DNA of 64,000 nucleotides, taken from contig NC_087436.1 of assembly GCF_036321535.1 (NCBI RefSeq), positions 52,454,001 through 52,518,000 on the forward strand, written 5' to 3'. Position numbers and translations under genes: made by a program. Shown in pieces: positions 18,655-53,470 of this stretch. How positions within the stretch are numbered: the first letter of the stretch is position 1; each line of letters opens with the position of its first letter. Below the pieces are notes generated by a model, which saw only the letters and a list, made by a program, of their open reading frames with translations, made no database searches and was not told where the DNA came from. Source of the DNA: Camelus dromedarius. Lineage: Eukaryota.

Positions 18655-18935
18655 TGGGAACCCTTGTGCACTATTGTTGGGATTATAAATTGGTGTAGCC
18701 ACTATGGAAAATAGTATAGAGTTCCCTCAAAAAATTAAACATGGAAGTGCCATATAAGCCAGCAATTCTACTTCTGGGAATATATCCAAAGGAAACACTA
18801 ATTTGAAAAGATATCTGCACCCCTATATTTATAGCAGCATTATGTACAATAGTCAAGACCTGGAAACAACCTGTGTCCATCAATAGAAGAACGGATAAAG
18901 AAGATGTGGCATACACATATAGATACGTATATTCA
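18655..18935 (+). mobile_element. L1 ORF2 C-terminal fragment
   Basis: 'gggaacccttgtgcactattgttggg...gtagccactatggaaaatagtat...gcagcattatgtacaatagtcaagacctggaaacaacc'. Confidence 0.9.
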
Positions 18936-19575: not shown

Positions 19576-21741
19576 CTCTTAGAAATATCTCATAAGAAAT
19601 ATGTTTCTTTATTGAGAAATAGGCATGGATATAAATTCTAATTTATAATGTGCACTTCTTTGAGCATAATCATAATTGAAGCATTAAAACGTATTTTGCT
19701 TTTCTCTACGTTTTTATGCCTGAGGAGAAAAGGCTGAAAAACCTGTGGTCATCATCTGATAGTCAACTTTTCAAGCATTTTGAAAGAGCCTCACTCTATT
19801 ACTAATTAACTGTTCTTCAGCATTTATGTCATATGTTGACTTCTGAAATCTTGGTTATGCTATCAAAAATGTGTGCAATAAATCATTTTAGTTATGTGAA
19901 TACTAATTTTAAATATGACAACTTTTTAACACTTAAATGCTATAGCTTTAATATTATACTAATATTCATTTTACATTGATATTCATTTGTCCAGGTTTTG
20001 GAGTAAGTTTTATGTGCTAATTAGATTCTTCCATAGCATATTTTCTGTAGTCCAAAATGATAGAATTCAGAAAATTTGTGTGTGGAGTCACAGGCACTAT
20101 ATTTTCATAATCTTAGTTAACATTTCATTATTTCTACCCAGTATTAATCGAGAAGGAAAATAAGGTAGTGAAATTTACACAATGATCCCCACAGTGAATT
20201 AAAGCTGAAAGTCAGAAGAGAGAATAAATGTGGAGTGAAGGCTGAAATACACTTGGGTTATCACCTTCCTACACTGCCCATTACATTTGACACAGGCCCA
20301 AAAGAATGAACTCCTCCTGATCAGTGGGAAAAGAAGACCAGATTTGTGTCTGGGTAGGTAGTGATTGAATTTTTCAGTCTTCTGGAAAATTAAAGCCTGA
20401 CCCAAACATACACTTCTGTTTTGTTTCCTTTGAGACAGCCAAGAGTATGAGATAATAATTCCAAGCATTTCAAATACCAAGAGATGCCAAGACTGATGCA
20501 TTGTTTCCTGTTTCATGAGCTCAGTACAGGATGCTCAGCTCATAAACACTCTTAGGGAGCTTTGTGGGACACAAAATCACTTACCCAGCACTGTGAGCCT
20601 CCATTTTTAATTCCCCTCCAAATTAATTTTTATGACTTCTCAGGGAGTCTTTTCAATTCCCTATACAGGTCATGAAATTTTGATTAAACATTTAATGAGA
20701 TTCTTTGCATAGATCTGTCTTATTTCCCAAGCTCCTTCATTCCACCATGTCTATTCAACTCAGTGCCTCATCTCTAAAATAAACTATTAAAAGAATAATT
20801 ACTCCTTCACAGTTTTACAGCATACAGTCTTTTCAGTCTTGGCCTCCATAGTTACAAGTTTTTTAAAAAATCTGTTTTTATCTAAACCATTGTTGGGAGC
20901 CTACCATTTGCTAGTCATGGTGGTGGAGGATAAAAAAGACAGAGATGAATAAAAATGGTGATTTCTTCTCTCAAATAATTCACAATATTATTCACAGACA
21001 TCAAAAAAGTATTTACAGTATGAAGGTGAGATGAACCAAATTGCTACGAAATACCTGGTGCCCTGGTATTTTCTAGCACATTTTTTTTCCAATATGGTAT
21101 TCATATGAATTTACTCAAAAATCAACATAGATTTATCTGTTCAGTGCAAACAATAAAATTTAATCAGTGTGTGTTCTAACCACCTTGACTCATCTACCAG
21201 TAAACATGCAGCGTATCACATATACATATATTTGTTTTTATTATGGTGATAGTTCTTAATGTGTGTCTGGTATTCGACATTTCAAGCATACACACAGATT
21301 TTAATGTTAAAACAAGGTAAAATAATGATGGAAGAAGAAATTAAACATCTCTGATATAAAAGTAGAGAACAGAGAATAGTGAAGAGGAAGCAACTAACGG
21401 AGCCTGGGGCTGAGGAGTTAGGCAAGGCTTGACAAGGGAATCACATTTATATTGAGATTCAAAGAATAGATATATAGATTAATATATAGCTAGCTAGTTA
21501 GCTAGATGATTAGATAGATAGACAGGATTTCATGGTGAAGAGATTGGAGAGAGAATACCCTCGTCAGTAAGAAGAGTAAATGCATTAAAGTGTGAAAGAT
21601 GCCCTGGTGTGGTGAACATTGGTTTCTGCCAAACTAAGAGAGTCTTTATATGCAAACAATAGAGTGTTGAGAATGTGAACTTGTCTTTTTTTTTTTTTTT
21701 TGTCAGAGCTGTGTAAGAATTTATAGATTTTGTTGAGCATT

Positions 21742-22943
21742 TTTTTTGTTTTTTTTTAAACATTTTTTATTGATTTATAATCCTTTTACAATGTTGTGTC
21801 AAATTCCAGTGTTCAGCACAATTTTTCAGTTATACATGAACATATATATATTCATTGTCACATTTTTTCTCTGTGAGCTACCGTAAGATTTTGTGTATAT
21901 TTCCCTGTGCTATACAGTATAATCTTGTTTATCTATCCTGCAATTTTGAAATTCCGTCTATCCTTTCCACCCTCCGCTCTTGGCAACCACAAGTTTGTAT
22001 TCTATGTCTATGAGTCTATTTCTGTTTTGTATTTACGCTTTGTTTTTTTGTTGTTGTTATTTTTGTTTTTGTTTTTTAGATTCCACATATGAGTGATCTC
22101 ATATGGTATTTTTCTTTCTCTTTCTGGCTTACTTCACTTAGAATGACATTCTCCAGGAGCATCCATGTTGCTGCAAATGGTGTTATGTTGTCGGTTTTTA
22201 TGGCTGAGTAGTATTCCATTGTATAAATATACCACATCTTCTTTATCCAGTCACCTGTTGATGGACATTTATGCTGTTTCCATGTTTTGGCTATTATAAA
22301 TAGTGCTGCTATGAACATTGGGGTGCGGGTGTCATCCTGAAGTAGATTTCCTTCTGGATACAAGCCCAGGAGTGGGATTCCTGGGTCATACGGTAAGTCT
22401 ATTCCTAGTCTTTTGAGGAATCTCCACACTGTTTTCCATAGTGGCTGCACCAAAACATAGGCAAAACATTATCTGACATACATCTCAAAAATTTTCTCCT
22501 AGAAGAAATAAAAGCAAGAATAAACAAATGGGACCTAATGAAACTTACAAGCTTCTGCACAGCAAAGGAAACCATAAGTAAAACAAAAAGACAACCTACA
22601 GAATGGGAGAAAATTTTTGCAAATGAAACTGACAAAGGCTTGATCTCCAGAATATATAAGCAGCTCATATGACTCAATAAGAAAAAAATAAACAACCCAA
22701 TCCAAAAATGGGCAGAAGACCTAAACAAGCAATTCTCCAAGGAAGACATACAAATGATCAAAAGGCACAGGAAAAAATGCTCTATATCACTAGTTATCAG
22801 AGAAATGCAAATCAAAACTACAATGAGGTATCACCTCACACCAGTCAGAATGGCTGTCATTCAAAAATCCACAAATGGCAAATGCTGGAGAGGCTGTGGA
22901 GAAAGGGGAACCCTCCTACACTGCTGGTGGGAATGCAGTTTGG
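21742..22943 (-). mobile_element. Young camelid-type L1, 5'-truncated (~1.2 kb) with 5' inversion (twin priming)
   Basis: 21742-22454 is antisense poly-A, 3' UTR and an open ORF2 C-terminus (...SLICGI*); 22452-22943 is the adjacent upstream ORF2 segment on +, ending in the [18 protein letters not shown] knuckle; GAGCATT flanks both ends. Confidence 0.93.
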
Positions 22944-23699
22944 AGCATTGTTGAATGACTCTGGTTGTCATTGTGATTTCTGATGGAGAAAATGGCTGAA
23001 GGTAGACCAATTATGATATACTTGTAAAATACTACACAACCAAGAAGGTGAAATCTAATGTTTTGGAGAAGCAGGGATGAGTTCAAGAACTATTTTCAAA
23101 TAAAAAAAAAACAAAAACAAAAAAACTCAGTGACTAATTAGATAGAAGAATTAAATAAGAAACAAAAAGTGAGATTTGGTGGGTGGCAGTTACTGATTTG
23201 TTTAATCAAAGTAAGGAATTAAAAAAACAGATTTTATAGGCAAAATGAGATTTTAAAATACAACTATTTGTTTATGATGCCTAAAGTGCATCTAAACAGG
23301 AATATCCAAAAAGATATGACAAATATAAACTGGAGATCAAAAGACAGATCGAGATTAGATATGATGGCTCTTTTGCTGTGATAAGAATTGTAGTTGAAGC
23401 TGAAGAGAGAAGGTACAGAGCATTTTTTTCAGTAACCTATACTATGTTTATTGTTTTAGGCCAAAATTACTTTTGACAAACCAAATTTTTGTAGTTATCT
23501 TATTCAAATAGCAGCGTTGAAAGCTAGAAGACCATTGTTTGAAGAGTAGGTCAGACCTTTAAATTTTCTCCGTTGCTGTTTCCCCACTTAGAAAATGTTT
23601 ATAACAATATTTGTTTTACTGAGTTATTGAAATAGTCAAGGAAATATAAAATGAGAGAAAAAATTCCTGACTAAAATACCTCTGCAAGAGATCCATTTT

Positions 23700-26525
23700 A
23701 AATTTAATATCTACATATATTGAAAATAAAAAGAAGGAAAAATATATATGCAAACAGTAAGCATAGAAAAGCTAGAGTGGTTGTATCACTGTTAGACAAA
23801 ATAAATGCAGGAGAAAAGGTATCATAAATAAATAGAAATATTGCATAATGATAAAATAAATTTTCATGAAGATATTACAATCCTACGTACATGCAAAAAT
23901 GACATAAGTAAACAGAAAAATAATAAATAAATTCAAAATCATAGATAAAGATTTTAATACTCAACTCTCATTAATTGATAGGTCAAGAAAAAAATCAGAA
24001 AAATATAGATTTGATAACTTTATCAACTAATCTTGAACTAATTGACATTTATAGAACACTTCACTCCAAAACCATGGAGCACGTGTCATTTTTAAGTGGC
24101 CATAAAATGTTCACAAAGTTAAATCATATGCTGGGCCATAAAATAAATATTAATACATTTCAAAATAATTAACTCATTAAGAAGATGTTCTCTGAACACA
24201 GCAAAATTAAACTAAAATTCAGTAATATTATTATTAAAATTTAATAATATAAAATATTTAAATATTCCCTCAAGTATTTTGAATTTAAATAACACATTTC
24301 TCAGTAACTCAGGGTCAAATAATAAATCATAGAAAATTACAAAGTGTTGTTAAATGAATGATAATAAAATACAATATATCAAAATATGTAGGGTGTGGCT
24401 CTAGAAAATAAGGAAAGCTTAAAATCAGTGTTATAAGTGTACGTGTTAAGAAGTCAGAAAATAAAAAGTAAACAAAACTAAGAAGAAGAAAGAAAATAAT
24501 AAGAGAAGAAATTAACGTAAGAAAGATGGACAGTAGAAAAGAGTCACAAAGATGAAAATTGGTTCTTTGAGAAGGTCAAAAAAATTGAAAAAAACACTAG
24601 CAGGATTGATTGAGAAGAGAGGAAAAAAGGGAAAACACAAATTACCCATGTAAATTACTGATGAAAGAGAGGTTATCCTTATAGGTCCTACAGACATTAA
24701 ACAGATAATAAACAAATATTGTGAATAACTTAGGTCAATGCCTTTGACAATCTAGATGAAATAAACAAATTCCTCAAAAAAATGAAACTTTTCAAGACAG
24801 ATGAAAGGAGAAATAAAAAACATAAACAGCTTGATATCTCTGTTAGTGAGATTAAACTTGTTACAGAAAAAGTTACTATAAAAAAATTCAGATGTAGATG
24901 GTTTCATCGATGTTTTCTACCAAGTGTTTAATGAAGAAATAATACCAATGTTATCAAAACTCTTTTGGGAAATATAGGAGAAGAGAACGTATCCAAACTT
25001 GTTTTATGAGGCATGCTTAGCTCTATTACCAAAACTTGACAAAACTCGAGTAAAACTAGAGTCCATTATACCTCACGAACATCATCACAAAAATCCTTAA
25101 TAGCAACAAAAATAATAAGTCAGCATTCAAGCATGCAAATAAAAAATCAGTCAGTGTAATTCACCAAATTAAAGAGACTAAAGAAAAAAAAATCTAAATA
25201 AATGCAGCAAAAGCATTGGACATGATTTAAAACATATTCATCAAACTTGGAATCAAAGGGAATTCCTCTATTTGATATAGAGCATCTACAAAAAATACCT
25301 ATATCATATTTAATAGTAAAAAAATTTAATGTTGTCTCATGAAGATTGAAAGAGGAGAAAAATAGCTCCTCTCATCATTTCTATGCAACACTGTGTCAGA
25401 GGCCCTAAGCAATGCAATAAGATAAGATAAAGAAATCATAGCCATAAGGTTTAAAAGAAAGAGTTAACACTCTCTTTAATAGATACCAAAACTAGTTATG
25501 TAAAAGATCTTAAAAAAGATTCAAAAACAGGCTCATAGAACTCAAAAATATTTTTAACAAAGTCACAGGCTAGAAAGTCAATATACAAAAATCAACTGTG
25601 TTTTTTAATGAAAGAAGCACTAAATTATAAAGGAAATTTTTTAAATCCATTTACAGTAACATAAAAAATGTAAACTATTTAGGATTAAATTTAATGAAAG
25701 ACGTTAAACCACTGCACATTGAAAACTGTAAAACATTTATGAGAAAAAAATGGAGAGATAAACCATGGTCAGGGATTAAAAAATTGTTGTTAAGATATCA
25801 ATTCTCTCCATTGATCTATAGAGGCAACTTAATCCCAATCAACATCCCAATAGATTCTTGTAGAAATTTAACAGTCGATTTTGAATTTATGGAGATGCAA
25901 AGGATCTTGGATAACTAAAAGAATTTTTACTAAGAACCAAATTGGAAGAACTGCACTATCTGGCTTCAAGACTTTCTACAGGGTCACTTCAATCATGCTA
26001 GCATAAAAATAAAGTGACCAGTGGAACAGAGAGAGTTATTTGGTTTTTTTTTTAACAAAGATACCAAGGTAATTCAATTGGGATAGAAAAAATCTTTTTA
26101 GCAAAGTGTGCTGAAACAACTGGCTAATAAATAGAAACACAAATTTAAACACTTGTTCATATAACACATGTATGTGCAAGTGCAATTCAGTTGGATCATA
26201 GACTTAAATGTAAAAGTTAAAACTATTAAGCTTCTTGAAAAAAAAAACAACCCATAAAACCTGGAGTAGGCACAGTTTCTTTCAAGACAACAAAGAAAGC
26301 ATTACTCATAAAAGATAAAAATAATAAATTCTACCACATCAAAATTAAAACCTTCTGCTGGGCCAAACTTAGCATTAAGAGAAGGAAAAGGGAAGTCATA
26401 GACTGGGAAAAGATATTTTTAGTTCATATATCTGACGTAGTCTTGTATCCTGAATATGTAAAAGACTCCTATAAACCAATTTGTAAAACAGCAAGCAATT
26501 CAGTTAAAAAATGAGCAAAATACTT
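23700..26525 (+). mobile_element. Old L1 ORF2 body, 5' part of an element split by a MaLR provirus
   Basis: Degenerate ORF2 peptides, e.g. LELIDIYRTLHSKTMEHVSFLSGHKMFTKLNHMLGHK; many stops and frameshifts; ends 'aaaaaatgagcaaaatactt'. Confidence 0.9.
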
Positions 26526-29164: not shown

Positions 29165-29590
29165 TAGTTGATTTTTTAAAAAAATTTACTTTTATTGAAG
29201 TATAGTGGATTTACAATATGTTAGTTTCAAGTAGACAGAAAATTGATTCAGTTTTATATATATATATATATTCTTTTTCAGATTCTTTTCCATTATAGGT
29301 TATTACAAGATATTGAATATGGTTCCCTGTGCTATATAATAGGTCTTTATTGTTTATCTATTTTATATATAGTAGTGTGTATCTGTTAATCTCAAACTCT
29401 TAATCTGTCCCTCCCCCATCCCTTTCCCCTTTGGTAACCATAGTTTTTTCTATGTCTGTGAGTCTATTTCTGGTTTGTAAATAAGTTCAGTTGTGCCATT
29501 TTTTTAGATTCCACATATAAGTGATTCCGTATATTTGTCTTTTTCTGACTGACTTACTTCACTTAATATGGTAATCTCTAGGCCCATCCA
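29165..29590 (-). mobile_element. Artiodactyl/camelid L1 3' fragment with 18-bp TSD, inside the second MLT1 LTR
   Basis: 'ttttattgaagtatagtggatttacaat...ttagattccacatataagtgat...ggcccatcca'; TSD TAAACTTCACCTATTTTT (29147-29164) / TAAGCTTCACCTGTTTTT (29591-29608), followed by AA. Confidence 0.9.
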
Positions 29591-29741
29591 TAAGCTTCAC
29601 CTGTTTTTAAGATGAAGTGACACATACCCCACTATCTGATGGCAGGAATGTCAAGAATGCATTATACAAGAAACATATGTAATGGGAGATATTATTGTGG
29701 CTATTTTTATTATTGTTATTTTGGAAACTGTATCTGCAACA

Positions 29742-30819: not shown

Positions 30820-30975
30820 GTAGCACTTTTCAAACTTTAATGTGCCCAGGAAATTTTGTCAAAATGCAGATTCTAACTCAGGCAGTCTGGAGTGGGATCT
30901 GAGTGTCTGTACTTCTAACAAGCTCCCAGGGATGTTGCAGCTGCCGGTCCAGGGGCTGCCTTGGAGTGTCAAAGC
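30820..30975. mobile_element. MER5-family MITE
   Basis: 'ttttcaaactttaatgtgc...aaaatgcagattctaactcagg...tctggagtgggatctgag...ttctaacaagctcccagg'. Confidence 0.8.
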
Positions 30976-39705: not shown

Positions 39706-39896
39706 TCAGTAATTATTAACTGAGGGTGACCATCAGAATCACCAGCGTATATATATATATGTTTATTTTTTTCTCATATGTATGCCTGGTCCCCACCCTG
39801 GACTTCCTGAATAGAAATTTTATGGGTGAGGCCTAAACATAACATGCTTTTGAAAAATTCCATAGAGTGATTCTGATATTAAGATTCATAGATAAC
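39706..39896. mobile_element. MER5-like MITE abutting duplicate copy A
   Basis: 'catcagaatcacc...cctggtccccaccctggacttcctgaatagaa...gggtgaggcct...gtgattctgat...gataacc'. Confidence 0.7.
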
Positions 39897-40140
39897 CATG
39901 AGCAAAACTGCCAGTGGTTTAGTGTCAGGATATCACTGTCCAGGATATAAGAATCCAAAACCTCCTAAGACAGGAAACTTGGATTCTGTGATTGGAAATG
40001 TGCTCAGATGCAGCACTTTTCTGCTTGTGAAAGTCATTGCTATGTCACTTCCTCCGACCAAAGTCTGGATTTGGAAGAATGGGTCGAATTGTGTCCCAGC
40101 TTTGTTGTTCATCCAAGATATTTTTGTCTTTAATTATACA
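39897..40140 (+). repeat. Dispersed direct repeat, copy A (244 bp)
   Basis: Aligns without gaps to 52668-52911 (offset 12771) with 15 mismatches by hand count. Confidence 0.97.
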
Positions 40141-41199
40141 GGATGGGAAAATACTAAGCCAGTGCTAGTTTAATGAAGTTGAAAACATTTATAAACAATT
40201 TTATATGTGATAAAATGGAAATCACTTATTTTGAGAAGCTTGGTGCAAAAACCATTAGCATTTTGCTAAAATTGTTAGCATTCTGGCAAGGCGAGTCATT
40301 TAATAATGGCCATGTTCTTAACTATTAACACCCTATTCCTAAAATTATTTACATTACTTTATGAAGCATATTTTTAATTTTCAGAAAACTTTGAAAAAAA
40401 ATCTTACTTCTATATAGAAATGAATAGGTTTTAAAATACTTTCATTCAAATCGTCCTAAACTTTTGAAACAACTGCATAGTGTCAGAACTAAGAGCTGTC
40501 TTTGTCATTCTGTAGATGAGTAAACTAAGACTCAGAGAAAAAGTTCTTTCTCTCCTGGTGTCATGCAACAGGACTGGAATGTGAGGAGTATCAACTGCTC
40601 TGGGTAATTACATATACAGATCTCATGTATTAGTTTGATAGCTCCTGAGAAAATTATTTTTTCTCCATTTTAAAGACAAGAAAAGGATTAGCAGCCTTTA
40701 TTAACTTCCCTTACTCATGCAGAGAAAATAACAGAGCTAAGACTGTCTGCCCTCAAAGCCTACGTTCTCATGATATACTAACTCCTTTCAGTAGAATGAG
40801 GAACCCTACATAATCCTTAAGAACCTATCTGGATCTCCTCTCTCCCCACTCACCTGAGTCCATCAGTGAGCCTTTAATTGGATCAAGAAAGCTTCCACTG
40901 CATTTTACTGCTGAAGGAAAAACAGAGCAGATTAATGTGGAGGAGAAAATAAAGCTCAGTATAAGACCTTCCTAAAAGGTTAGAATCAGAGCTGAGAAAT
41001 CAATCTAGTAGATACAAAAATTTAATTATTTTGCATCAGGCACTGTGTGAAACTATGGGGATAAAAGATGAATGCTTTGCCACTGAGAAGTCTATATCTG
41101 GTGTGGGAGGCTAATGATGTCTGAAAAGTGTGACCAATTTGGTCTTACTTCTATCAAATCAAGATTTTTGAGAGAAGGTAATAAGTAGCATCTTCTATT

Positions 41200-41520
41200 T
41201 TTCAGAATAGGCTTCAATAGCAAAATAAACAGGAAATCTCAGTGGCTTAGTACAATAAATATTTATGTGCTGCTCATGCAAATTCAGAACAGATCTATGG
41301 TGATGGAAGTGGAGGCTCTTCTCCACACAGTCACTCAGGGGTCTAGACTGCACCATCAGGGACACATGGTCTCAAAGGTTGCCATGGAAGGGAAATAGAA
41401 AACAGAGGACTCATACCTGCTCTTTTATGCATTGTCCTGGAAGTAACTCATGTTACTTCTGCTTAAAGCCTCTGGCCAGAACTAGCCACAAGGAGCTGGA
41501 CATTATACAGGGAGCTGGAC
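41200..41520 (-). mobile_element. MLT1-type solo LTR remnant
   Basis: 'aaatctcagtggcttagtacaataaatatttat...gctcatgc...ctccacacagtcactcagggg...ctggaagtaactcatgttacttctgct...ggccagaactag'. Confidence 0.8.
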
Positions 41521-43689
41521 ATTCATTAAGCACTAAAATTCTCGGCTACCGATTTCAGCCAGTTTTGACAAGAGTCAAAGTGGAAGGTATAGAACAGCAT
41601 GATCTGGGAAATCTTTCCACAGGTTAGTAGAATGTTGATCTGAGATATGACATCCAAGGGGAAACCAAACTAAAACACCAGTAGGTAGAGGCCATAATGA
41701 AGGGCCTGGACTAGATCCTAGAAAGGAAAGACCAAAGAAGATGGGACTTGATGCAGACAAAGAGCAAGCAGCAGTTTCTTGAATCCCTGGGATACAGCCC
41801 AGGAGCCATTAGTAAGGTAACTAACTCTTTGCCTGAGTTATGTGTAAAGAGTGGTTTATTAAGAGGAATGAGCCAGTGCAGACACTCATTTCTAACTTTA
41901 CGTTTATATGTTTCTATGAATACCAGAAGGCTGTGCCTGCAGTTGGCTTTCTTTATTTGGAAAAAAGAGAGAAAAAACAACCCAGTTTCTAGAGAATTAA
42001 CTTCAACTTCCATTTGTCTGGAAGCTTGGAAGAGAGAAGTAAATAAATCACCTCATCATGTTTTTAAATTGTTTCAGATCTGGTGCTATGAAAGATTCCT
42101 TTGAGTATTACGAAATGGCCACAGAGGTGAACAATGCATAAAGCAATTTGGGAAACTGAAAATAAGAACGAAAATGGGTAGGAAAAAAAGGAGTAAAATC
42201 TGAAATTAGTAAGACTGGATGGAGCATATATAAACAGCAGAAGCACTTAGATGTCATTCACTTATGTCACATTTTTGCACGAACATATCTGTAAAAAATC
42301 ACTGGCATATACCACTTGCCCAATTTTATTAGGTGTCATTTGACATAAGAAAAGAATATTTCCCTAAGATACTATTTATGGCACACCAAAAATAAGACAT
42401 CTGTGCAGAAGTCTTGGACGTGGGGTATATGGTAACAGCTGAGCTAAATGGAACGTTGAGTAAATAATGAAGTACTTTATATTTGCCTACTTATTTCTGA
42501 ATTCATTTACATATTCCAGAATTCCAAGGAAGTAATCATACCTGTGCTTCACTAGATATAATTAAATGAATTATACTCAATCTTCTTCCCCAAAAGTTCT
42601 TGCAAAAATCTCATTTCCTTATTAATGTATTTACATGGTTAATGGAAAAAAAAAAAAACCCTTAAGCTTCAGTTTTGTACACAAAAAATTAATTGATGAC
42701 AGTGATTTCCAGAACTTTTTAAGGCAGATAAAGATGGAGAATGGTGTTTAAACTTTGTAGCAAGAGGAGTGGTCCAACAGAAGAGCTGCCTTAGAGAGTA
42801 ATGAGCTCCAATCATTTCAGCTCTTGACATGAAAGCTGACTCATTATTTGCCAAAGGGATTCCTAACAAATGATAAGGTTACTTAAGAATTTTTTCTAAA
42901 GTAACTTTTTGCATATCTTCTCTATAAGCTACTGTGTTTTTATGATTCCCTCATATTTATGCCCTTATATATTGAGACTTAAGAGATTGATCCCTTTCAA
43001 GTTAGGGAGTTAGTGTGAGATGAGAGAATTGTCTATATGTGTTGATGTGTAAAATTGTAATGGACCACTGCAGAACGTAAAAGATAAGCTCTTTGGAAGC
43101 TTCAGAAATCAGCTTGCCATGCCTTTTCATTTGAACAATAATGAAATAGCACTGGCCCTAGGCCCCTGGGAGTTGATTAGTAGAAATACAGTAAATGAAG
43201 AAGATATTTTACTAACATAAGTTTGGCCAAATGGCTGGGCCTACCCACTATTGATGCTCATATCCATTTTGGCTTTCCAAGAGTGGGACTTTATATCTCT
43301 AGTACCATAAGCCTGTTTGTCTTCAGCTCTGTTCCGAACACCTTCAGGATATCCCAGCCTCCATTTCAGAGAGGCAAGTAACAAAAATAATCTGTTAGAT
43401 TCTATCTTCAGTGAAGAAGGTACCTGATATTTAAAGTACCTTAAAGTGAAGCATGGAATAAATTCCTGAAAATAAGAGTTGGGAGTCTGTTTAAGCTGTT
43501 TTGCAATGATATTTTGGGACTCTCATCATCTGAATACTTCTTAAGAAATTGGTTAGTCACTCTGGAAAAATATGGTTTATTTAAAATCCTAACAACCTGA
43601 AAACATACCGCTGAACTAAGACAATTTATTTTAGCCCAAACTAGAAGTTTAAGGCTTAATTGCTTGCTTTAATATATGCTTTCTGGACT

Positions 43690-43830
43690 CTCACTTAATC
43701 CTCTAAAAACATTTGAAGTTGCCATGGTAATTATCTCCATTTTTTCATGGGGAAACCAAGGCATAAAGAGGCCAAGAAACTCAGGACTAAGGGAAGGAAC
43801 CAGGATTTGAACACAGAGCTCATGCTCGTT
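43690..43830 (-). mobile_element. MIR
   Basis: 'ctcacttaatcctc...ttatctccatttttt...ggaaaccaaggcataaagagg...ccaggatttgaac'. Confidence 0.7.
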
Positions 43831-44419
43831 GCCAGTTCATGAGATCATCTTTTGGCATTTCTACCATTTCAGATGATTTTTTTTTTCTGTGACAAGCTGG
43901 CAGAGAGAAAGAAGGCAAATATGGAAAGGAAGTTTAATTTGGGTGCTTACTAATGGTGCCCCCTGAATCAATCTCAGCACCACACAAGTTAAATTAGCCT
44001 CATCAGTGTTGGAGTCTCCATTATACAATTTCTTCAGTATCACAGATGTCAGTGGCCAACTTTGAGATGTACTTGGATAGAATCCTGAGATTGCTCTGGT
44101 ATGACCTCACAACAGCTTACCTTTCAGATTCAACAAGGATACAGAAGATGGATTGTGAAAAAACACAAGGAAAAACATCTTTTCATCTCTCAGGTTAAGG
44201 TGGTGTAGGTCTCTTCACGTATTTTCTTTTATTAAAGTGCTCTTAAATCACACACTTCTCAATAATTAAAATACTCAAGGAGGTTAGAATACAAAATGTT
44301 TGTATAAATATTACCACTCAAAATATTAAATTAAACAAAAAGTATCAGATTAAACAAAAGCTTTGTTTTTTTAAAGACAGAAATAATGTTTTACTCTGAA
44401 ATCTTTGTAAGAAAAATAA

Positions 44420-45560
44420 ACAAATATAAGATACACACCATCTATAATTCACTACCTGGAGATAAGCATTGTTAACATTTTCTATTTTATATGTATATAT
44501 ATATTCAAACATATATATATATATGCATATGTGCATTTAAATACATATGTACATGCAAAGAAATATCATGAATATATTTCCACATCTATAAAAATTTCTC
44601 TAATACTATTTTGTGGCAGAATATTGCATCTTATTCCCCAATAATTAATGTTGTTGACAAATGTGTGTAATAACATAAACTTTAACGAGCACCTTCATTT
44701 TCAGAATAAGTTCCTAAACATATTATTGCAAGTTCAGAGTATGGTTCTTTAACTTAGACATACATTGCTTTGATGTATCAATAACTTTGATGTATACAGC
44801 CAAGTCACACCTCAGAAAGGTTATACATACACCAAGAATAAGACAGTAACTTTCTTTGAACATTCATCAAAATTGGGTATTGTCAGAAAATATACCTAAT
44901 TATATTTGAAAGACAAAAACTGTTATCTCAATTATTGAATATCCATTTCTTTGATTTCTTCTGAGATAACTATACTCTTCCATTTTATTGGCCTTCTGTT
45001 TCTTCTTTGATGACTTATTTTGTCCATTATTCAGTTGCAGAGTCATTGTTTTATTGTTGGTCAAGAGGTCATTACATATTAAGGATATCAAATCTTTATT
45101 ATGTATTGTTTTTCAAGTTGCCTTTTCATTGTATGGTGTGTTGAGTCAAAAATCTTTTAACTTATATGTAAGAAAACAGATCAAGTCTTTCTTTTATGTA
45201 CTGTGCTTTTGCTGTCATGCATAAAGTGTACTCTCCACCCCAGTTATATGCAGATAGTCACCCACGTTCTCTTTTAACATGTAAGAAATTTATTTTGGTA
45301 TTTGAAGTAAAATAGATACCTAACTTTAATTCTTAAAAGATTATTAATAACTTGTCAAAACTCATTTATTAAAGAACGTATCCTACTCATCATATTTGCT
45401 ATATGTTAAATTCACCTATATCTAATCTCTCTACACACACACGTCTAATACACAAACATATCTGGAAATACATCTATGTAAATATGTAGACAGCTGTATA
45501 TATTTCTGTCCGTACTTTCCGTTTTATGTCATTGATCTGTCTGTCTCTTCTGGTAATCAC
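44420..45560 (-). mobile_element. Old L1 (L1ME-type) 3' region, antisense
   Basis: 'gttaacatttt', 'ccatttctttgatttctt...ttattggccttctgtttcttc...tgtccattattc...tattaaggatatcaa'. Confidence 0.65.
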
Positions 45561-45602
45561 CTCTGTTTCAATGAATTATTTTTACCTTAAAAATACCTTC
45601 TT

Positions 45603-45777
45603 AGATAAAAAACAAATTTCTTCTGTATAGCACAGGGAACTATATTCAATATCTTGCAATAACATTTAATGAAAAAGAATATGAAAATGAATATATGTAT
45701 ATATCTCTATGACTGGACATTATGCTGTACATCAGAAATCAATAGATTGTAACTGAATATATGTCAATTAAAAAAAA
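45603..45777 (+). mobile_element. Artiodactyl/camelid L1 3' tail
   Basis: 'ctgtatagcacagggaactatattcaatatcttg...gaaaaagaatatg...tatgctgtacatcagaaa...tcaattaaaaaaaa'. Confidence 0.85.
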
Positions 45778-47099
45778 CCTGATCTATTAAGACAAAGCTG
45801 ATCCATCATATTACTTCTATTTTTCCCTTTGTTTTTTTTTGCCTAGCCATTTAAAAATGCATTTCTTAGATTTTGTTTTTTATTTTTTCATCTACAAGTC
45901 TTATCCTTTAAATAGACATCATATTCTACCATCAAGCCTTCTTGGAATAGGAATCTAGTTTTTCTCATAAATGTTTAGCAGTCAGCCATGAAAATCAAAG
46001 AAGTCAAAATGCTATGGAATCCCTTCAGCAGTGATTGTGACCAACATCAGTGGTAACCATATGTGTTGAAAACTCCAGAGTTAAAGCAGAACAAGGAGCA
46101 GGAAGTGTGGCCATGCGAGTGTTCCACTGTGAGTTCATGGCCACACCCCAATTTATTTCTGGAAAGTACATGTGACATCTATTCACATACATTGCTATCT
46201 TTATACTCTCCAGGATATGCCAAATAAAGTAACAACTCCAAAGGCTGTCTGTTTTAGAAAATTAATTAGAAACAAGGGTAAAATTAAGTTGTATACACAC
46301 AATAGAAACTTGGAGGCTCTTCTGAAACTTGGTATAACTTAGGATGAAAGAAGCTAGTGTTTTGATCAGTTGACTTGGTCTAACCACCCTTATAATGGGT
46401 CCTTCCCAGCACCGTGCAGCAGTGAAACGTGCGTCCTCCTTATGAATAGGTAAAGGTATAATTTTGGAATAATTTTCTTGGTGGAGCAGATGAATCTATA
46501 CTGATCCATCGACACCCATTTGTCCTGGAGGTTTCATGCCTAAAGATGCATGACAGGTTGATTGGCTGAGATTAGATGAGCAGCCTGTGGCTGAGGAAAA
46601 GTATAGAATTACTCGGCATACACAGAGATTTTAGCTGAGACTATGGCAGCATCATCATCATGTTCTAATCAATTGTTCCTGACATCAAAGAGGCCTCTGA
46701 TACACACAGTATCTTGCCTGATTGGCATTCTGGTCTGAAGACTCCATCTCTCCTGACCTCACTGGTTACCCCAGTGCTGTTCAAATCACATTTCCTAGAG
46801 AAGAGTATCCATGGGGTTTTATAAGTAATTTTTCCTTTTTCTTCATCAAGTTCCAACAATAAGACCAGGAACGACCAGTGGACATTCACACATCACTGCT
46901 CAATTCTATCAGAAATAGCCTGAAAAATCCCCCTGACCACCTGTCAGAAGTCTCTCACTTACCCAAGTCAGAGTGTAATCTGTGTTTTTTGCACTTTTCT
47001 CCAGAAAGGTAGTCTTTCCCAATCTGGGCTTTCAAGTTGGAAAGAGAGAAGAAAAGTGGATTCCTTGTGGATTCTGCTCTAAAATTTAACCCTCAGGCA

Positions 47100-47554
47100 G
47101 CTAAAGCCTCTTTATCCAAACCCAGTCGCTGTTTAATGAGGCCCCTTGATAATCACTCAAAAACACACTTTCAAAACAAAAGTTAGAAAGCCTGTATGAC
47201 CCGTTCCCAAGAAAGATCTCTTTCTGTTCAAAACCCGTCCTGACCTTTTTGTTGAAGAAGAACAAAATAATGTAGTAACAAAAACACAAGTGGCTGCCAA
47301 AGGAAGAGAAAAAAAAAAAAAAAAGTTCCTGTAAGGGACTGAAACAATAAATCTCCTCTCTGCTGAACTCCCAAAGGGAATGTGTGCATTTCCTCCCGTT
47401 CTTTATCAGAGCCCCTGCAATAAGTAGGAATGGGCAGTGGCTGTTCACATGCAGCACACCTTTTCCATTTGCTAAGAAGGACCTGCCAGGCCAGGAGGGA
47501 GTTGTCCCTGCCTGACTCGGGAGAGAGGAGCCACGGTGACCATCCACAGGCACC
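47100..47554 (+). promoter_or_regulatory. EMCN: EMCN proximal promoter and 5' UTR
   Basis: Unique DNA just upstream of the ATG with TGATAA (~47147), TTCCTGT ETS (~47326), AACAAT SOX (~47343), ATTTCCT ETS (~47388), TTATCA GATA (~47403); 47376-47554 resembles the human EMCN mRNA 5' end as I recall it; TSS not determinable. Confidence 0.8.
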
Positions 47555-47624
47555 ATGAAACGGCTTCAAGTGACCATCCTTTGTCTTCTTCTGTCCAGTC
47601 TTTGTAACAGTGAGGACAAAACAG
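47555..47624 (+). CDS. EMCN: Endomucin coding exon 1 (signal peptide), phase-1 donor
   Basis: gcaccATG context; MKRLQVTILCLLLSSLCNSEDKT-G resembles human EMCN MELLQVTILFLLPSICSSNSTG (from recall); hydrophobic core; donor CAG|gtactg at 47624/47625. Confidence 0.9.
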
Positions 47625-50394
47625 GTACTGTTTTCTCTTATTGCTCTGTTGGTGTGGATACTAGTAGGGGAGCTCTGAGCCTCAGTTTACCTCCAGGGAA
47701 CTTCCCCGGCAACGTAGATGCAGCAGCTCATTTGCTGAGTCGAGTGTGTGGATGGTGAGTGGGAGTCGTGGAGAAGGCTCCACAGAGAGGATGCTTGTTT
47801 CACTGAAGGAAAATGTTTGGTGTTGCAGTGGCCGTGAAGTGTGTTCCATGGCATCAGAAAGGCACTGGGATTATACACTAGCCTTCTTGGAGAATAAAAA
47901 TCTAGGGAGAAAATGCTGGCTGAAAACATACTATTTCTCAAAAATGTGCTCTTTTCAGACATAAGTCTAGAAGTAACAAGATCGTCACGTATGGGTGAAA
48001 GGCTGTAATCAGAAATACTGCATTTCAAATGTTGGCCTGTATTTGTCCCAATTATCTTTTGGCTCTAATAAACTGAGAAGTTGGAGAAGGCTGCCTAGGG
48101 AAGTGAATCTTAATATCTTGAAGGAGCAGAGTGAGAAAAGAGGAAAGTCATTTGATTAAGGTTTATAGATGCTTGCTTAGAAATGAGCACATACCTACAC
48201 ATATATGTACAACATTTTGCATAACATTTCAGTGAATTTATAGACATAAAAACCCTACCCGTTGACGGCAGGTTCTGAAACTTAGGTAAAGGATATACAC
48301 GCACCTACCTAAGCCCTGACTATATTAATGACCAGTAGCAAGAAATGATTACATATGACTTTTAACCCTTCGAGAGGGGTTTACTGTGAGCAATTAAATT
48401 TAATCAATATTTATTATGCTCCCTCCATGTACAAGGAATAAAAAAAAAGAGTAAGACATTGTCCTTGCCCACAGTGATAAATGTACTATTGGGAGAAATA
48501 ACTGTGTAATTCTAATATAAGACCAATTTAATAAGTGTGAAAACCAAAGTACACACTATCATAAAAGAACACAGTTGGGACACATTGATTCTGCCTGTGA
48601 GGAGCCCTGGGGAAAAAACTCAGTTCTAATTTTATTTTGCATGTGTTCTTTACAAAAGTTTACTGCATACAAAATTCAATTTACAGTGATTACGTAGGAA
48701 AAAATAAGCACAACCCTTGAAAAATATTTATCATTAATTTCTCAAAATGTGTACATAAATTTAGGACAGATTCCCAAACACTTCAAAATCACACACATTT
48801 GCTTACCATCCATCTGGGAGTTGCCAGCATTAAGTTGCAGTGGGTATCAAGCCCAGGAAATTTAGATGAGTTACTAAGTTACGATTTTTTAAAATAAATA
48901 ATATTTATGAAGTGACACAGAAATCAATGCACTAGCTTGTAAGTAACTCTACAGTATGCATGGGAGAGATTGATAGGCTCCCGATGCTGTGAGAAACACT
49001 GTTCATAAACGTGTGTCAGGTCCATATGAATTCTGAACGTCTGGGTTCAGTGGCTCCCCATCCCAGGTCTGCAAGCATCACTAAGTACACTACTTTCCCG
49101 GGCAGTGTTAAACTCTGAATGGATGACATGTCCTTCTGAAAGCAAAGTGGGATAGAATCAATAGAAGCAGCCTGCAAAATCTGGCCATAAGGAAGATGAA
49201 AATGTAAAGGATAACCCAGAAAGGACCTGGTAGATTTTTCTCTTACGGTTGTTTTGGGAAAATACCAATGTCCTTTAGATCACTGGTAATGAGCCCAGTC
49301 TCTCTGTTACTGGTATCTTCTTTCTAATGAACTATTCACCCAAGTAAGATAATTTCTCATGTGAGCAGAGACAACTGTTACATAATGACTATCGCCTTTA
49401 CCCTCTGCCAACAAGGCTTTGTTAATTTAAGGCAAGTGTCTGTAAAATCTACCTTATTTATCCTAGAAAAAGAAGCTCTAGCTCAGGAGCATAAATTGAC
49501 CATCTAAGGGGTGCCTAGAAGGACCTGTAAGAGATTTTCCCATCCGTGTGTTTGATTTTGTTGCCCCTGGCTCTGCCTGTTTTATGTTTTCCTCCCCAGA
49601 TACGGCACAGGAAATGAAACATTTCCTAAGCTGATTTATTAAGTTCTTTTCCTAACCCCCTGTACCGGAAACACATTGATTTCAAAGCTATATATGTTCC
49701 CCAAGCTTAGAATGCTTAACATATTTCATCAGCAGAGATGATTATAGGGGTACAGAGGGAGGCAGTTCATCTGCCTTAAATTCACAAGTTGTCAAGAAGA
49801 TCCATGCTTTTTTGCATAGTAATTTATTCCTAAATAATAATCTTTTAAAGAAATTGACTACTTTTTTTTTCTTTCTGACTTTTTTGTCAGTCTCAGATTT
49901 AAATAAATACAATCTAGTCTTTTGTGCTTTTTGTGAAAATCAAGGAAATCTTTGTACATGACAGTGAGTGACTTTCTATTACTTGGTTGGTGGTATAATA
50001 TTTTACAGTCTCCAATTTGGAAAGCTGTTCTATTGAAATATGTATGGGAGGTTCCTGAAAAGGAACTGTCATTCTTTCCCAAGATTTTCTAAATTGTATT
50101 GAAAACTGAACAGACCCCTACAGTGGCTTTTAAGCTCCTTTGGCTTTTAAGTCTAGATCGATGAGTTTTTCACTGTCAGGACTGAGTAAAATTAAATGAA
50201 GAAGGATTCCAAGAAAAAGGAGGCTCTGGAAGCAATTTACTTTTCAAGTGCCATTTGCTTTTTTGAACTTTACATTAATTTAGGAAGGATTAAAATGTTT
50301 TAGGCATTTGCAAGCTGGAACAAACATCACTTTATTGGTCTCTGAAGAAGAATTTAATTGCTTGTAGAAATTCATTTGTTAGTGATTGAACATT

Positions 50395-51090
50395 CAATTT
50401 CATGGGGTAAAAAATGGATTAAACACAGTTATAAGACAGATATTATGCTAAACACTGTAGGTTTATAGACATCAGTGACTCAGCTTTTGCCCTAGAAGAG
50501 GGGGAGACAGGAGGATAAGCCAAATCATTACAAATTTGATTCTATTGTAAGCCTTAAGTGGTAAATAAAGACTGCTATGGAGAATTCACAACTAGCTTAG
50601 TTTTGAGTATAGGGACATCAGAAAAGCCTTCATATGAAAGTGGAAATTATAATAAACTTTGAAACTTAAAAAACAGGAGATTCTAGATGGATGAAATTTC
50701 TTGAGTAGGAACATTAAAACATCAGTCAGTATGTTCTAGTATAAAGATGTAGGGAGGTCACAGATTGGACAGAGTGACCAGAGTGTTGGGAAATACAGCC
50801 CTCAGATATGTTGAATCCTGGAATGAGACATATTGACTCATATAGCTAATTAGTTTAGAGTCTCTAAGTGTGTTTGAGCATGAGAATATCAGAAATAGGG
50901 AAATGGACTTGGAGGAGAAATTGGAAAAGATAAGAGGAGATGGTTTAGGGAGAAAATGATGAATTTGATTTTGAACATAGTGAGCGTGAAATCCTAATAA
51001 GATACTCAATAGAGATGTCCAGTGGTAAATTAAAATTGTCTGCTGGGTGGTTGGAATGCCCCTGGAGCTGCAGATGATGGTGAGGGGTTG
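50395..51090 (-). mobile_element. L2 fragment, antisense
   Basis: 'gatgaatttgattttgaacatagtgagcgtgaaatccta...gagatgtccagtgg' and upstream tail-like sequence. Confidence 0.65.
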
Positions 51091-51149
51091 AATGGTCTTT
51101 ATGCTTGTCTCCCAAGAGTATTTTAGTCTCATCCTGCCCGCTGGGAGAT

Positions 51150-51366
51150 TTAATAACATAGAGAAACAGTTTATTTCTCTTCTGGATGCCCATCTTTATA
51201 ACTCTCTCATGGCACTTACTTTCCAACCTTATCATAGTTATCTGTGTGCATATCTGATCTCCTTTACCAGACTGTAAGTACCTTGAAAGTCAGGGTCATA
51301 TTCATTATAGTTTGTCCATTAACAGTTCTAAACACATAATAAGGATACAATTATCTGAATGAATGC
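51150..51366 (+). mobile_element. L2 3' end
   Basis: 'ccagactgtaagtaccttgaaagtcagggtcatattc...acagttctaaacacataataagg...tgaatgaatg'. Confidence 0.75.
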
Positions 51367-52667
51367 AAAAATGAATGATATAGTAGTTGTCTTAATGTTT
51401 TTTCATTTTTTAATTTTTTCCTATAGTCATCACTTACCAGTTTACTACCTTGTCCTTGTAAAAAGCTTATGGACAAGCATGAATCACAGAACATAATGTG
51501 CAAACAGGTGGATTATTTTGGTTCCTGGCTATGAAAGTGAGCAACAAATATAAAAAAAGGGGGCTCTTATCAAAGTAAATCAATTCCCAAACTCCAGCAG
51601 AAGTGAAGATGACAGGGATAGGTGGATAACCTAGTGCCAGGTGACAGTAATTTACAGCAAACCTGGAAGAATGAACTGCTCTGACTATAATCACTAGGAG
51701 GAAGGATATCTAAATATGATTGACTCTACTTCTCCTTTTGGGTATCAAATACTTTATGTAATATCTTCTTATGGTTATAAATATTCAAGGAGAAACCTTA
51801 TTCCTAACCAACTTCTCAAAAATACAAACTGGCTTTTTTTAAAAAAAAAAGCAAAGTTCACCAAAGAAAATTTGGAAGAAAATTAAATATTGTACATCAT
51901 TAATTCATGTGTTATCTTACTTATTACTTCTGCTTAGCTTAATCACTATCAACTGGTCTTATATGAAATGGGTGATGTATTATATAGGAAGAGTGAACCA
52001 ATATGGAAGCAAATTCTATGGAAGAGTATTCAGTCTCCAAGCCATTTGTTTAGTATGCTTTTTTCACTACTCTTTTCTTTTTTTCCTTCAATGATCTCTA
52101 CCTAAAAGTATAAGTGATCATTCTAATATTCTTATTTTCAAGAGATTCATAACAGTTGTCATCAGCAAGTTGTCTGGCAGTTTTATCTTGCTGATTGTAA
52201 TTATTCAAATACTGAGGAAAAAAAGAATATTTGAAGGTTTCAAAAAGCTTCTAACTTACTGAATAATTGCCCATCTTTTCCTTATTTTTGAGGAAATTAT
52301 ATTTCAAGCTTCAGATAAATATTTTAACTTGTGAGTAATTATCTAACTCATGTTGTTTATACTCTTTTTTTTCTTAGTCACCCTTTCCAATTTCCTCTTT
52401 ACCTTTGAGAAATTTGAGATGCTTCTTTCTGAACATTGAATGTCAAAGCAGGAATTTACTCTAAGCGACATTCCATTCAATTCCTGTGTAGTAAGTGTCT
52501 CCTTTCCTGTTACTGAATTCCTGTGGGTCATTATAGCTTTATCAGGTTAAGATAATAATGCCTTTTTGGTGTTAAAAGAAGCTCTTTTAGTTAGCAAATA
52601 AGATCCTTTTTGTCCTGTTGCACACAAAATCATCAGTAGCATGGGAAACAGTGGTGTCAATTAAAAA

Positions 52668-52911
52668 CATGGGCAAAACTGCCAGTGGTATAGTGTCAGG
52701 ATACCACTGGCTGGAATGTAAGAATCTAAAACCTCCTAAAACAGGAAACTTGGATTCTATGATTGGAAATGTGCTCAGATGCAGTACTTTTCTGCTTGTG
52801 AAAGTCATTACTATGTCACTTCCTCCAACCAAAGTCTGGATTTGGAAGAATGGGTCAAATTGTGTCCCAGCTTTGTTGTTCATCCAAGATATTTTTGTCT
52901 TTAATTATACA
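52668..52911 (+). repeat. Dispersed direct repeat, copy B (244 bp, in EMCN intron 1)
   Basis: ~94% identical and ungapped against 39897-40140. Confidence 0.97.
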
Positions 52912-53049
52912 CTATATGATTCCCAAATTTCAGCAACTATAAAAATAATAATGCTCTAAACTTGAATAGAGGTTTTGTGTCTTGCAGAATGCTGTAACGG
53001 TAAAGATAATCATAACTAATCTCTGAATAGAAGTAGCCACCATATGAGT

Positions 53050-53470
53050 ATTAGACACCTGTTGTGCCTTTTCCTACATCCTCTCTGGACATGTTTGGTC
53101 CAACCATTGCTATGGCAACCTGTCAGGTGTCACCTGACAGTATCTTGTCTCATGAGAACGTGTATCTCTTGCTTTCCTGTCTGCTGTTGTTCTGATACTA
53201 AGGCATGTTTCACCTGCAGAACCCTGCCTGGCACTGGTATGTGTCTGAGCTAGAAGTGCAGCTGCCTTAGCACTCTAGGAGACATCCTTTGCCCAAAAGA
53301 AGAATGGGGCCGGTGAATAAATGCTTTCCTCTTCTATTGCTGTTCTAGTTCCACTATTTTAGTCCTCTACTCCTTTTCCTTAGATCACTTTCCTTAGATC
53401 ACTTTCCTTTACAGACTGTCCGCATACAAACCTTTGTCTCAGGCTCTGCTGTTTTGAAACATCCAGGATT
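53050..53470 (+). mobile_element. LTR16-like ERVL solo LTR remnant
   Basis: 'gagctagaagtgc', 'ggggccggtgaataaatgc' and the end 'aaacctttgtctcaggctctgct' resemble the LTR16 family. Confidence 0.6.

Follow-up and report, generated by a model that had tools for sequence, protein, structure and literature searches.

A short, polarised duplication of a partly conserved and probably regulatory element on both sides of EMCN exon 1 in the dromedary

Short copies of DNA inserted at a distance from their donor have been described under several names. Pace et al. 2009 (PMC2671141) report 824 repair-mediated duplications in the human genome, up to 619 bp long and within 5 kb of their donors, 82 of the 824 donors having conserved segments, and about 200 such duplications each in cow and dog; within transposon DNA alone, about 200-800 repair-type duplications are given per mammalian genome. 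Another 58 of the 1,136 duplicons of that study share a chromosome with their partner at a greater distance, and no confident class was assigned to them. The doublets of Thomas et al., as cited in PMC2671141, and the templated sequence insertion polymorphisms (PMC5110952) are likewise short templated copies at a distance. Here we describe a pair of direct repeats in a 64,000-nucleotide window of Camelus dromedarius (NC_087436.1, positions 52,454,001 to 52,518,000), with one copy (A, 39897-40140 of the window) upstream of the endomucin gene EMCN and the other (B, 52668-52911) in its first intron. The pair is a new example of this documented process, a short duplication with a direction, whose unit is conserved in part and probably regulatory, and no published description of it was seen among the literature matches listed, judged at title level.

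Copies A and B match over 244 bp on the same strand and without gaps, with 15 mismatches, nine in the first 64 bp and six in the last 180 bp, exactly as an earlier note on this DNA had described them; 13 of the mismatches are transitions and 2 are transversions. BLASTN lengthens the match to 247 bp (starting at 39894 and 52665; E = 7e-104), where it ends sharply, with no similarity between the flanks of A and those of B, again in agreement with that note. The longest identical tract is the last 54 bp, and 12,527 bp separate A from B. An nhmmer --max search with a profile built from the two copies, all filters off, found no third one, so the element deserves the description "unique-looking" within the window; the pair is the sole young duplicate there, the remaining repeat pairs being 65-84% alike. 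This short duplication is real; an artefact of assembly is made unlikely by the 6% divergence of the copies and by their unrelated flanks. In sequencing runs, at least half of 27 words of copy A occur in 16 of the 24 rows listed, and in four rows from two studies once 12 possible source rows are set aside. Four rows with shares of 0.15-0.33 (three RNA, one guessed to be RNA) give no evidence of expression, copy B alone being expected to yield about 0.11 (24 of 214 words).

The gene between the copies is identified by the peptide of 47555-47623, which matches positions 1-22 of the Pfam family Endomucin (PF07010; E = 2.9e-5, 24.6 bits, just below the whole-protein cut-off of 26.6). The coding part of EMCN exon 1, a signal peptide, accordingly occupies 47555-47624 on the plus strand and is followed by a GT donor. 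Its ATG lies 7,415 bp 3' of A and 5,113 bp 5' of B, close to the distances of about 7.5 and 5.1 kb estimated before.

Both copies carry by chance a stop-free frame on each strand (39898-40173 and 52591-52959 on the plus strand, 52587-52904 on the minus strand), a state found in 0.5% of 1011 control windows, and distant homologs can therefore be found through spurious open reading frame calls in protein databases. Plus-frame searches returned one protein (P0001) by a word-indexed search and ten by an exhaustive library-wide search. Five of these ten, P0001, P0003, P0006, P0008 and P0010, are homologous DNA at 45-72% identity, and each can be followed through the element in a single frame or in two; they are singleton calls from public assemblies, on one to three contigs each, unnamed or labelled "hypothetical", and are presumably orthologous DNA of other mammals. 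The other five (P0002, P0004, P0005, P0007 and P0009) were rejected because their scores add up over repeat units, with 3-11 stretches each in unrelated repeat domains; the best BLASTP match of P0002 reaches 20.8 bits, and P0004 and P0007 were rejected without inspection of their sequence. No further homologs were added by a profile search, and both metagenome scans for homolog DNA came back empty. The homologs are known as translations, and a motif is tested in them as compatibility through amino acids, not as DNA identity.

The direction of copying is given by P0006. In a local frameshift-aware alignment this homolog extends to element position 354 on A and ends at 235 on B, and its last 47 residues score 22.2 bits against the right flank of A (40141-40250, plus strand), which is continuous with the element in P0006, compared with 0 against the right flank of B and at most 5.1 among 250 control sites. 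None of the homologs continues into the right flank of B, their alignments ending at or before its right edge. On the left side, the first two codons of P0001 require one forced change against the flank of A and four against that of B, which is weak support in the same direction. Since P0006 continues into the flank of A and not into that of B, the comparison of these sequences shows A as the donor and ancestral site and B as the insertion. The earlier note had proposed a local duplication by templated insertion, and to this proposal a direction can now be added.

These observations would be best explained if A is an old non-coding site 5' of EMCN that probably belongs to an endothelial regulatory element and whose short conserved core combines a single ETS site with a SOX/FOX-like block. 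EMCN intron 1 would then have suffered a double-strand break in the germline, some 10-20 million years ago, and synthesis-dependent repair would have patched it with about 247 bp copied from A, at a distance of 12.5 kb on either the broken chromatid or its sister, thus creating B. Afterwards, B would have undergone a clustered change near its 5' end (hairpin perfection, micro-inversion-like, of template-switch type) and lost both of its CpGs. Repair of an intron-1 break from nearby chromatin would explain a short, sharp-edged, non-tandem copy that lacks retro- and transposon marks. We consider a repair-type insertion from A to B probable, and infer the repair pathway behind it from the form of the copy.

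The ends of the element agree with this explanation. No exact target-site duplication of at least 5 bases was found within 6 bases of either edge of A or B, nor any poly-A or terminal inverted repeat at the element ends, as had been noticed before. Just left of B, at 52640-52655 on the plus strand, lies a gapped look-alike of the first 22 nt of the element, which may be filler from an aborted first copy; its score is reached by 19 of 1556 control 40-mers in a post hoc and weak comparison. At the right junction of B, an inverted match of 8 nt does not exceed chance (11% of 1557 controls).

Compared with the class of Pace et al. (50-619 bp; PMC2671141), A and B are similar in being short, non-tandem and on the same chromosome, without poly-A, with donor and acceptor both identifiable, a roughly neutral divergence, and a donor that has a conserved segment. 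They differ from its proximal members in their separation of 12.5 kb, beyond the 5-kb limit, and from its cases in that the acceptor of B was not seen to lie in a recognisable transposon; the pair thus behaves as a repair-mediated duplication would, yet falls outside the proximal class. It shares with doublets and templated insertion polymorphisms (PMC2671141, PMC5110952) the short copy and distant insertion, but is longer than the sub-100-bp duplicons surveyed and, at 6% divergence, older than the recent polymorphisms.

Conservation in the homologs is concentrated in one part of the element. Forced nucleotide changes amount to 0.141 per site overall and to 0.017 in element positions 200-229, a contrast reached in 2 of 2000 permutations (P 0.001). 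This most conserved 30-bp block (40096-40125 in A, and identical at 52867-52896 in B) contains a SOX-like CTTTGTT and a T-rich FOX-like run, and it is compatible with all four covering homologs; two of them use the same reading frame here and the other two a different one, which cross-checks the wobble positions. CTTTGTT by itself and the ETS core CAGGAA of A (39971-39976, plus strand) are each compatible with four of four covering homologs. The names ETS, SOX and FOX, including the FOX:ETS consensus, are those that we take these motifs to deserve. A second ETS-like site (40046-40054 in A, minus strand; 52817-52825 in B) has a TTCCT core compatible with both testable homologs, while the full 9-mer CACTTCCTC is compatible with neither, and TGGAAA is compatible with three of five. 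All motifs named in the earlier note are present in the copies. As for the FOX:ETS composite proposed there, the string AAAACAGGAA is indeed present in B (52738-52747, plus strand), but it is absent from A and compatible with none of four homologs, and is thus not a conserved feature. The motif trio occurs in none of 1011 control windows, a count set aside because the motifs were picked from the element's own sequence.

The partial conservation of the ETS core and the SOX/FOX-like block supports a regulatory role of the ancestral site. ETS, SOXF and FOX motifs are a common signature of endothelial enhancers (PMC11896612), and the balance tips slightly towards A being the core of such an enhancer. 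EMCN has verified upstream enhancers (PMC6349860, PMC8026812, PMC10952167). Like the venous enhancer EMCN-22 described in these papers and in PMC11896612, A lies upstream of EMCN, contains ETS motifs and is of similar length (EMCN-22 has 340 bp in human and 405 bp in mouse); unlike EMCN-22, placed at -22 kb in human (hg19 chr4:101,460,885-101,461,224), A is at -7.4 kb from the ATG, and the two are compared by position and length only. Likewise by position only, A can be set beside a mouse Emcn fragment tested at -18.5 kb (PMC5295818).

The changes accumulated since the duplication can be partly assigned. Counting the base before the start of the 244 bp, 16 positions differ, of which the homologs make four A-derived, seven B-derived (two of these calls on 3-to-1 homolog votes) and five undecided. 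Five mismatches lie within 9 nt in a cluster at element positions 37-51 (P 0.006). At and beside this cluster, B has a hairpin with perfect 11-bp arms (52681-52711, element positions 14-44; -11.8 kcal/mol, z -3.3), imperfect in A (z -0.75), and positions 44-48 of B equal part of the reverse complement of positions 43-48 of A. A near-perfect internal repeat (element positions 27-37 and 41-52) is retained in A and lost in B, which makes positions 37, 43 and 46 most simply B-derived and the clustered changes most simply a single event of template-switch type in B. Such an event would be like short-range template switching (PMC7954356), in which a substitution cluster is copied from a nearby reverse-complement template beside a hairpin, although that work used a pair-HMM and the cluster in B was interpreted by inspection. 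Both CpGs are kept in A and lost in B; outside the cluster and the CpG loss, the copies appear to have drifted at similar rates. Their distance corresponds to 10-21 Myr at rates of 2.2e-9 (from PMC2671141) and 1.5e-9 (assumed), suggesting a duplication roughly 10-20 Myr ago. The internal repeat of A (39923-39948, near-tandem units of 11-12 bp) may itself be a lineage-specific duplication that predates the split of A and B, since the homologs are shorter across this part.

Several points weigh against a repair-type copy of a conserved donor. The direction depends mainly on one homolog, P0006, known as translation only, and not on outgroup loci. The gap of 12,527 bp exceeds the 5 kb within which pairs are confidently assigned in PMC2671141. 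Junction microhomology, filler or deletion would be read from the empty site, and B is known in its filled state only. The copy count of two is that of the 64-kb window, with the wider genome outside it. As regards conservation, the search that yielded the homologs relied on similarity to this very frame and is biased in favour of conserved sequence, and the permutation takes no account of codon degeneracy; moreover, the element as a whole has changed in P0006 scarcely less than the flank, with 28 forced changes over 48 codons as compared with 21 over 34, so that conservation is confined to short blocks.

After insertion from A, B is by default taken as a neutral passenger. Alternatively, B could be a retained working second, or shadow, enhancer of EMCN, possibly improved by its gained FOX:ETS composite, a function that we regard as doubtful. 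The conserved motifs are all intact in B, its last 54 bp are identical to A, the composite string is found in B only, and the 244 bp copied fits the enhancer-core size of 250-400 bp (PMC11896612). An intact core is, however, expected by chance: a given stretch of 30 nt stays unchanged with a probability of 0.14-0.24, so that the unchanged block is no evidence of selection on B, and a 54-bp identical run has a probability of 0.32-0.63. In addition, derived changes are no fewer in B than in A, both CpGs are lost in B, and AAACAGGAA occurs seven times in the window. Shadow enhancers born by duplication are reported to be common, with 33.9% of mouse sets (PMC13345019), and A and B resemble these pairs in being homologous candidate elements around one gene, with homology in the body only and none in the flanks (31.5% of mouse hit pairs); unlike A and B, which are defined by sequence alone, those elements are defined by chromatin or activity data. 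It is thus conceivable, if unlikely, that the repair event copied precisely the conserved part of an enhancer upstream of EMCN, across the promoter, to intron 1 and that it gained the FOX:ETS composite there and became a lineage-specific second enhancer changing the level or pattern of endomucin in vessels, donor and recipient being possibly joined by a promoter loop.

It is improbable that A and B are pieces of an interspersed repeat of low copy number, or of a retro-copied sequence, that also occurs elsewhere. The search for copies covered the window, and copies beyond it would escape the count; also, the stretch from element position 3 opens with TG and closes with CA, as long terminal repeats (LTRs) begin and end. 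Against this stand the lack of target-site duplication, poly-A and terminal inverted repeat, and the extension of P0006 into the flank of A. Only five singleton homologs, on one to three contigs each, were found in billions of proteins, in a search run without a positive control, and it is unlikely that a rare repeat would insert twice, independently, at sites 12.5 kb apart and leave copies that share the same ends and are 94% identical. A solo-LTR pair or provirus was rejected for want of a target-site duplication. The 5' end of the element has a likeness, strongest in B, to what we assume to be MIR. A MIR head at this end was set aside: where a position in this part could be decided, the homologs mostly agree with A. 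Two stretches of the window that resemble MIR matched neither the element nor each other, so this comparison is weak.

Gene conversion, which the earlier note had offered as a second way to keep an old duplicate pair similar, is very improbable. The denser mismatches in the first 64 bp (Fisher P 0.005) would suit it, but the excess is a single cluster in B, and the contrast falls to P 0.16 when the cluster is counted once. Private substitutions occur along both copies, the flanks share nothing, and no homolog enters the right flank of B. With the contrast gone and the 54-bp run at chance level (P 0.32 at the lower end), gene conversion is not needed to explain the pair.

Least probable of all is that the duplicated unit is a small protein-coding exon or gene, for although an ATG at element position 2 opens at least 81 codons in both copies and the minus-strand frame is open too, as in few control windows, synonymous differences are 5 of 15 against a neutral expectation of 4.2 (P 0.41), a frame stays open through 15 changes of this kind in 69% of cases, three of the five homologs shift frame inside the element with differing starts and stops, and matches were absent from Pfam in either frame, from PDB in the minus frame and from Atlas above 0.77. 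Coding constraint on A and B is absent. A hidden protein or viral fragment was also sought and rejected: the minus frame matched nothing in Pfam, PDB or Atlas, nor in the protein database, where longer proteins only were covered, and the plus frame had no usable match in Pfam or Atlas. Among viral contigs, one 11-residue chance match (L001) was obtained, and none with the plus frame; Rfam gave no match at gathering score in the window.

Other features of the window lie around the two copies. As direct repeats, A and B (39897-52911) flank the EMCN promoter and exon 1, and a 12.8-kb deletion of the EMCN start is possible in principle, although probably rare because the longest perfect tract is only 54 bp. 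The left edge of A is touched by an old dispersed-repeat remnant (39707-39890, edges approximate). It is one of three copies of an old short repeat, with 1884-2000 and 30866-30951, which presumably resembles a MER5/hAT element; nhmmer with the query 1880-2090 links 39783-39877 (E = 0.004) and 30866-30951 (E = 0.001), while the pairwise score alone is not clearly above shuffled sequences. Pieces that we take to be LINE-1, 65-84% alike where compared, are found at 1374-1686, 18690-18913, 21739-22983, 25631-26514, 29182-29591 and 45602-45777. About 200 bp right of B, a near-perfect palindrome (53120-53140, 10-bp arms and a 1-nt loop) directly follows a motif that is presumably an RFX X-box (53104-53140 together). 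Perfect hairpin sites with arms of at least 10 number only five in about 63 kb, two of them within 440 bp near 53104-53140, a region that could be an intronic regulatory site or a break-prone spot.

Taken as a repair-type copy of A, the pair offers a clean natural experiment, with a known donor, a dated copy, 15 differences and a well-studied endothelial gene alongside, and a single one of these differences decides between a FOX:ETS-like string and a plain ETS site. The pair also draws attention to a candidate regulatory core of EMCN at about -7 kb, absent from the EMCN enhancer accounts compared here. Should B be a second enhancer after all, the locus would record the dated and polarised birth of a shadow enhancer.

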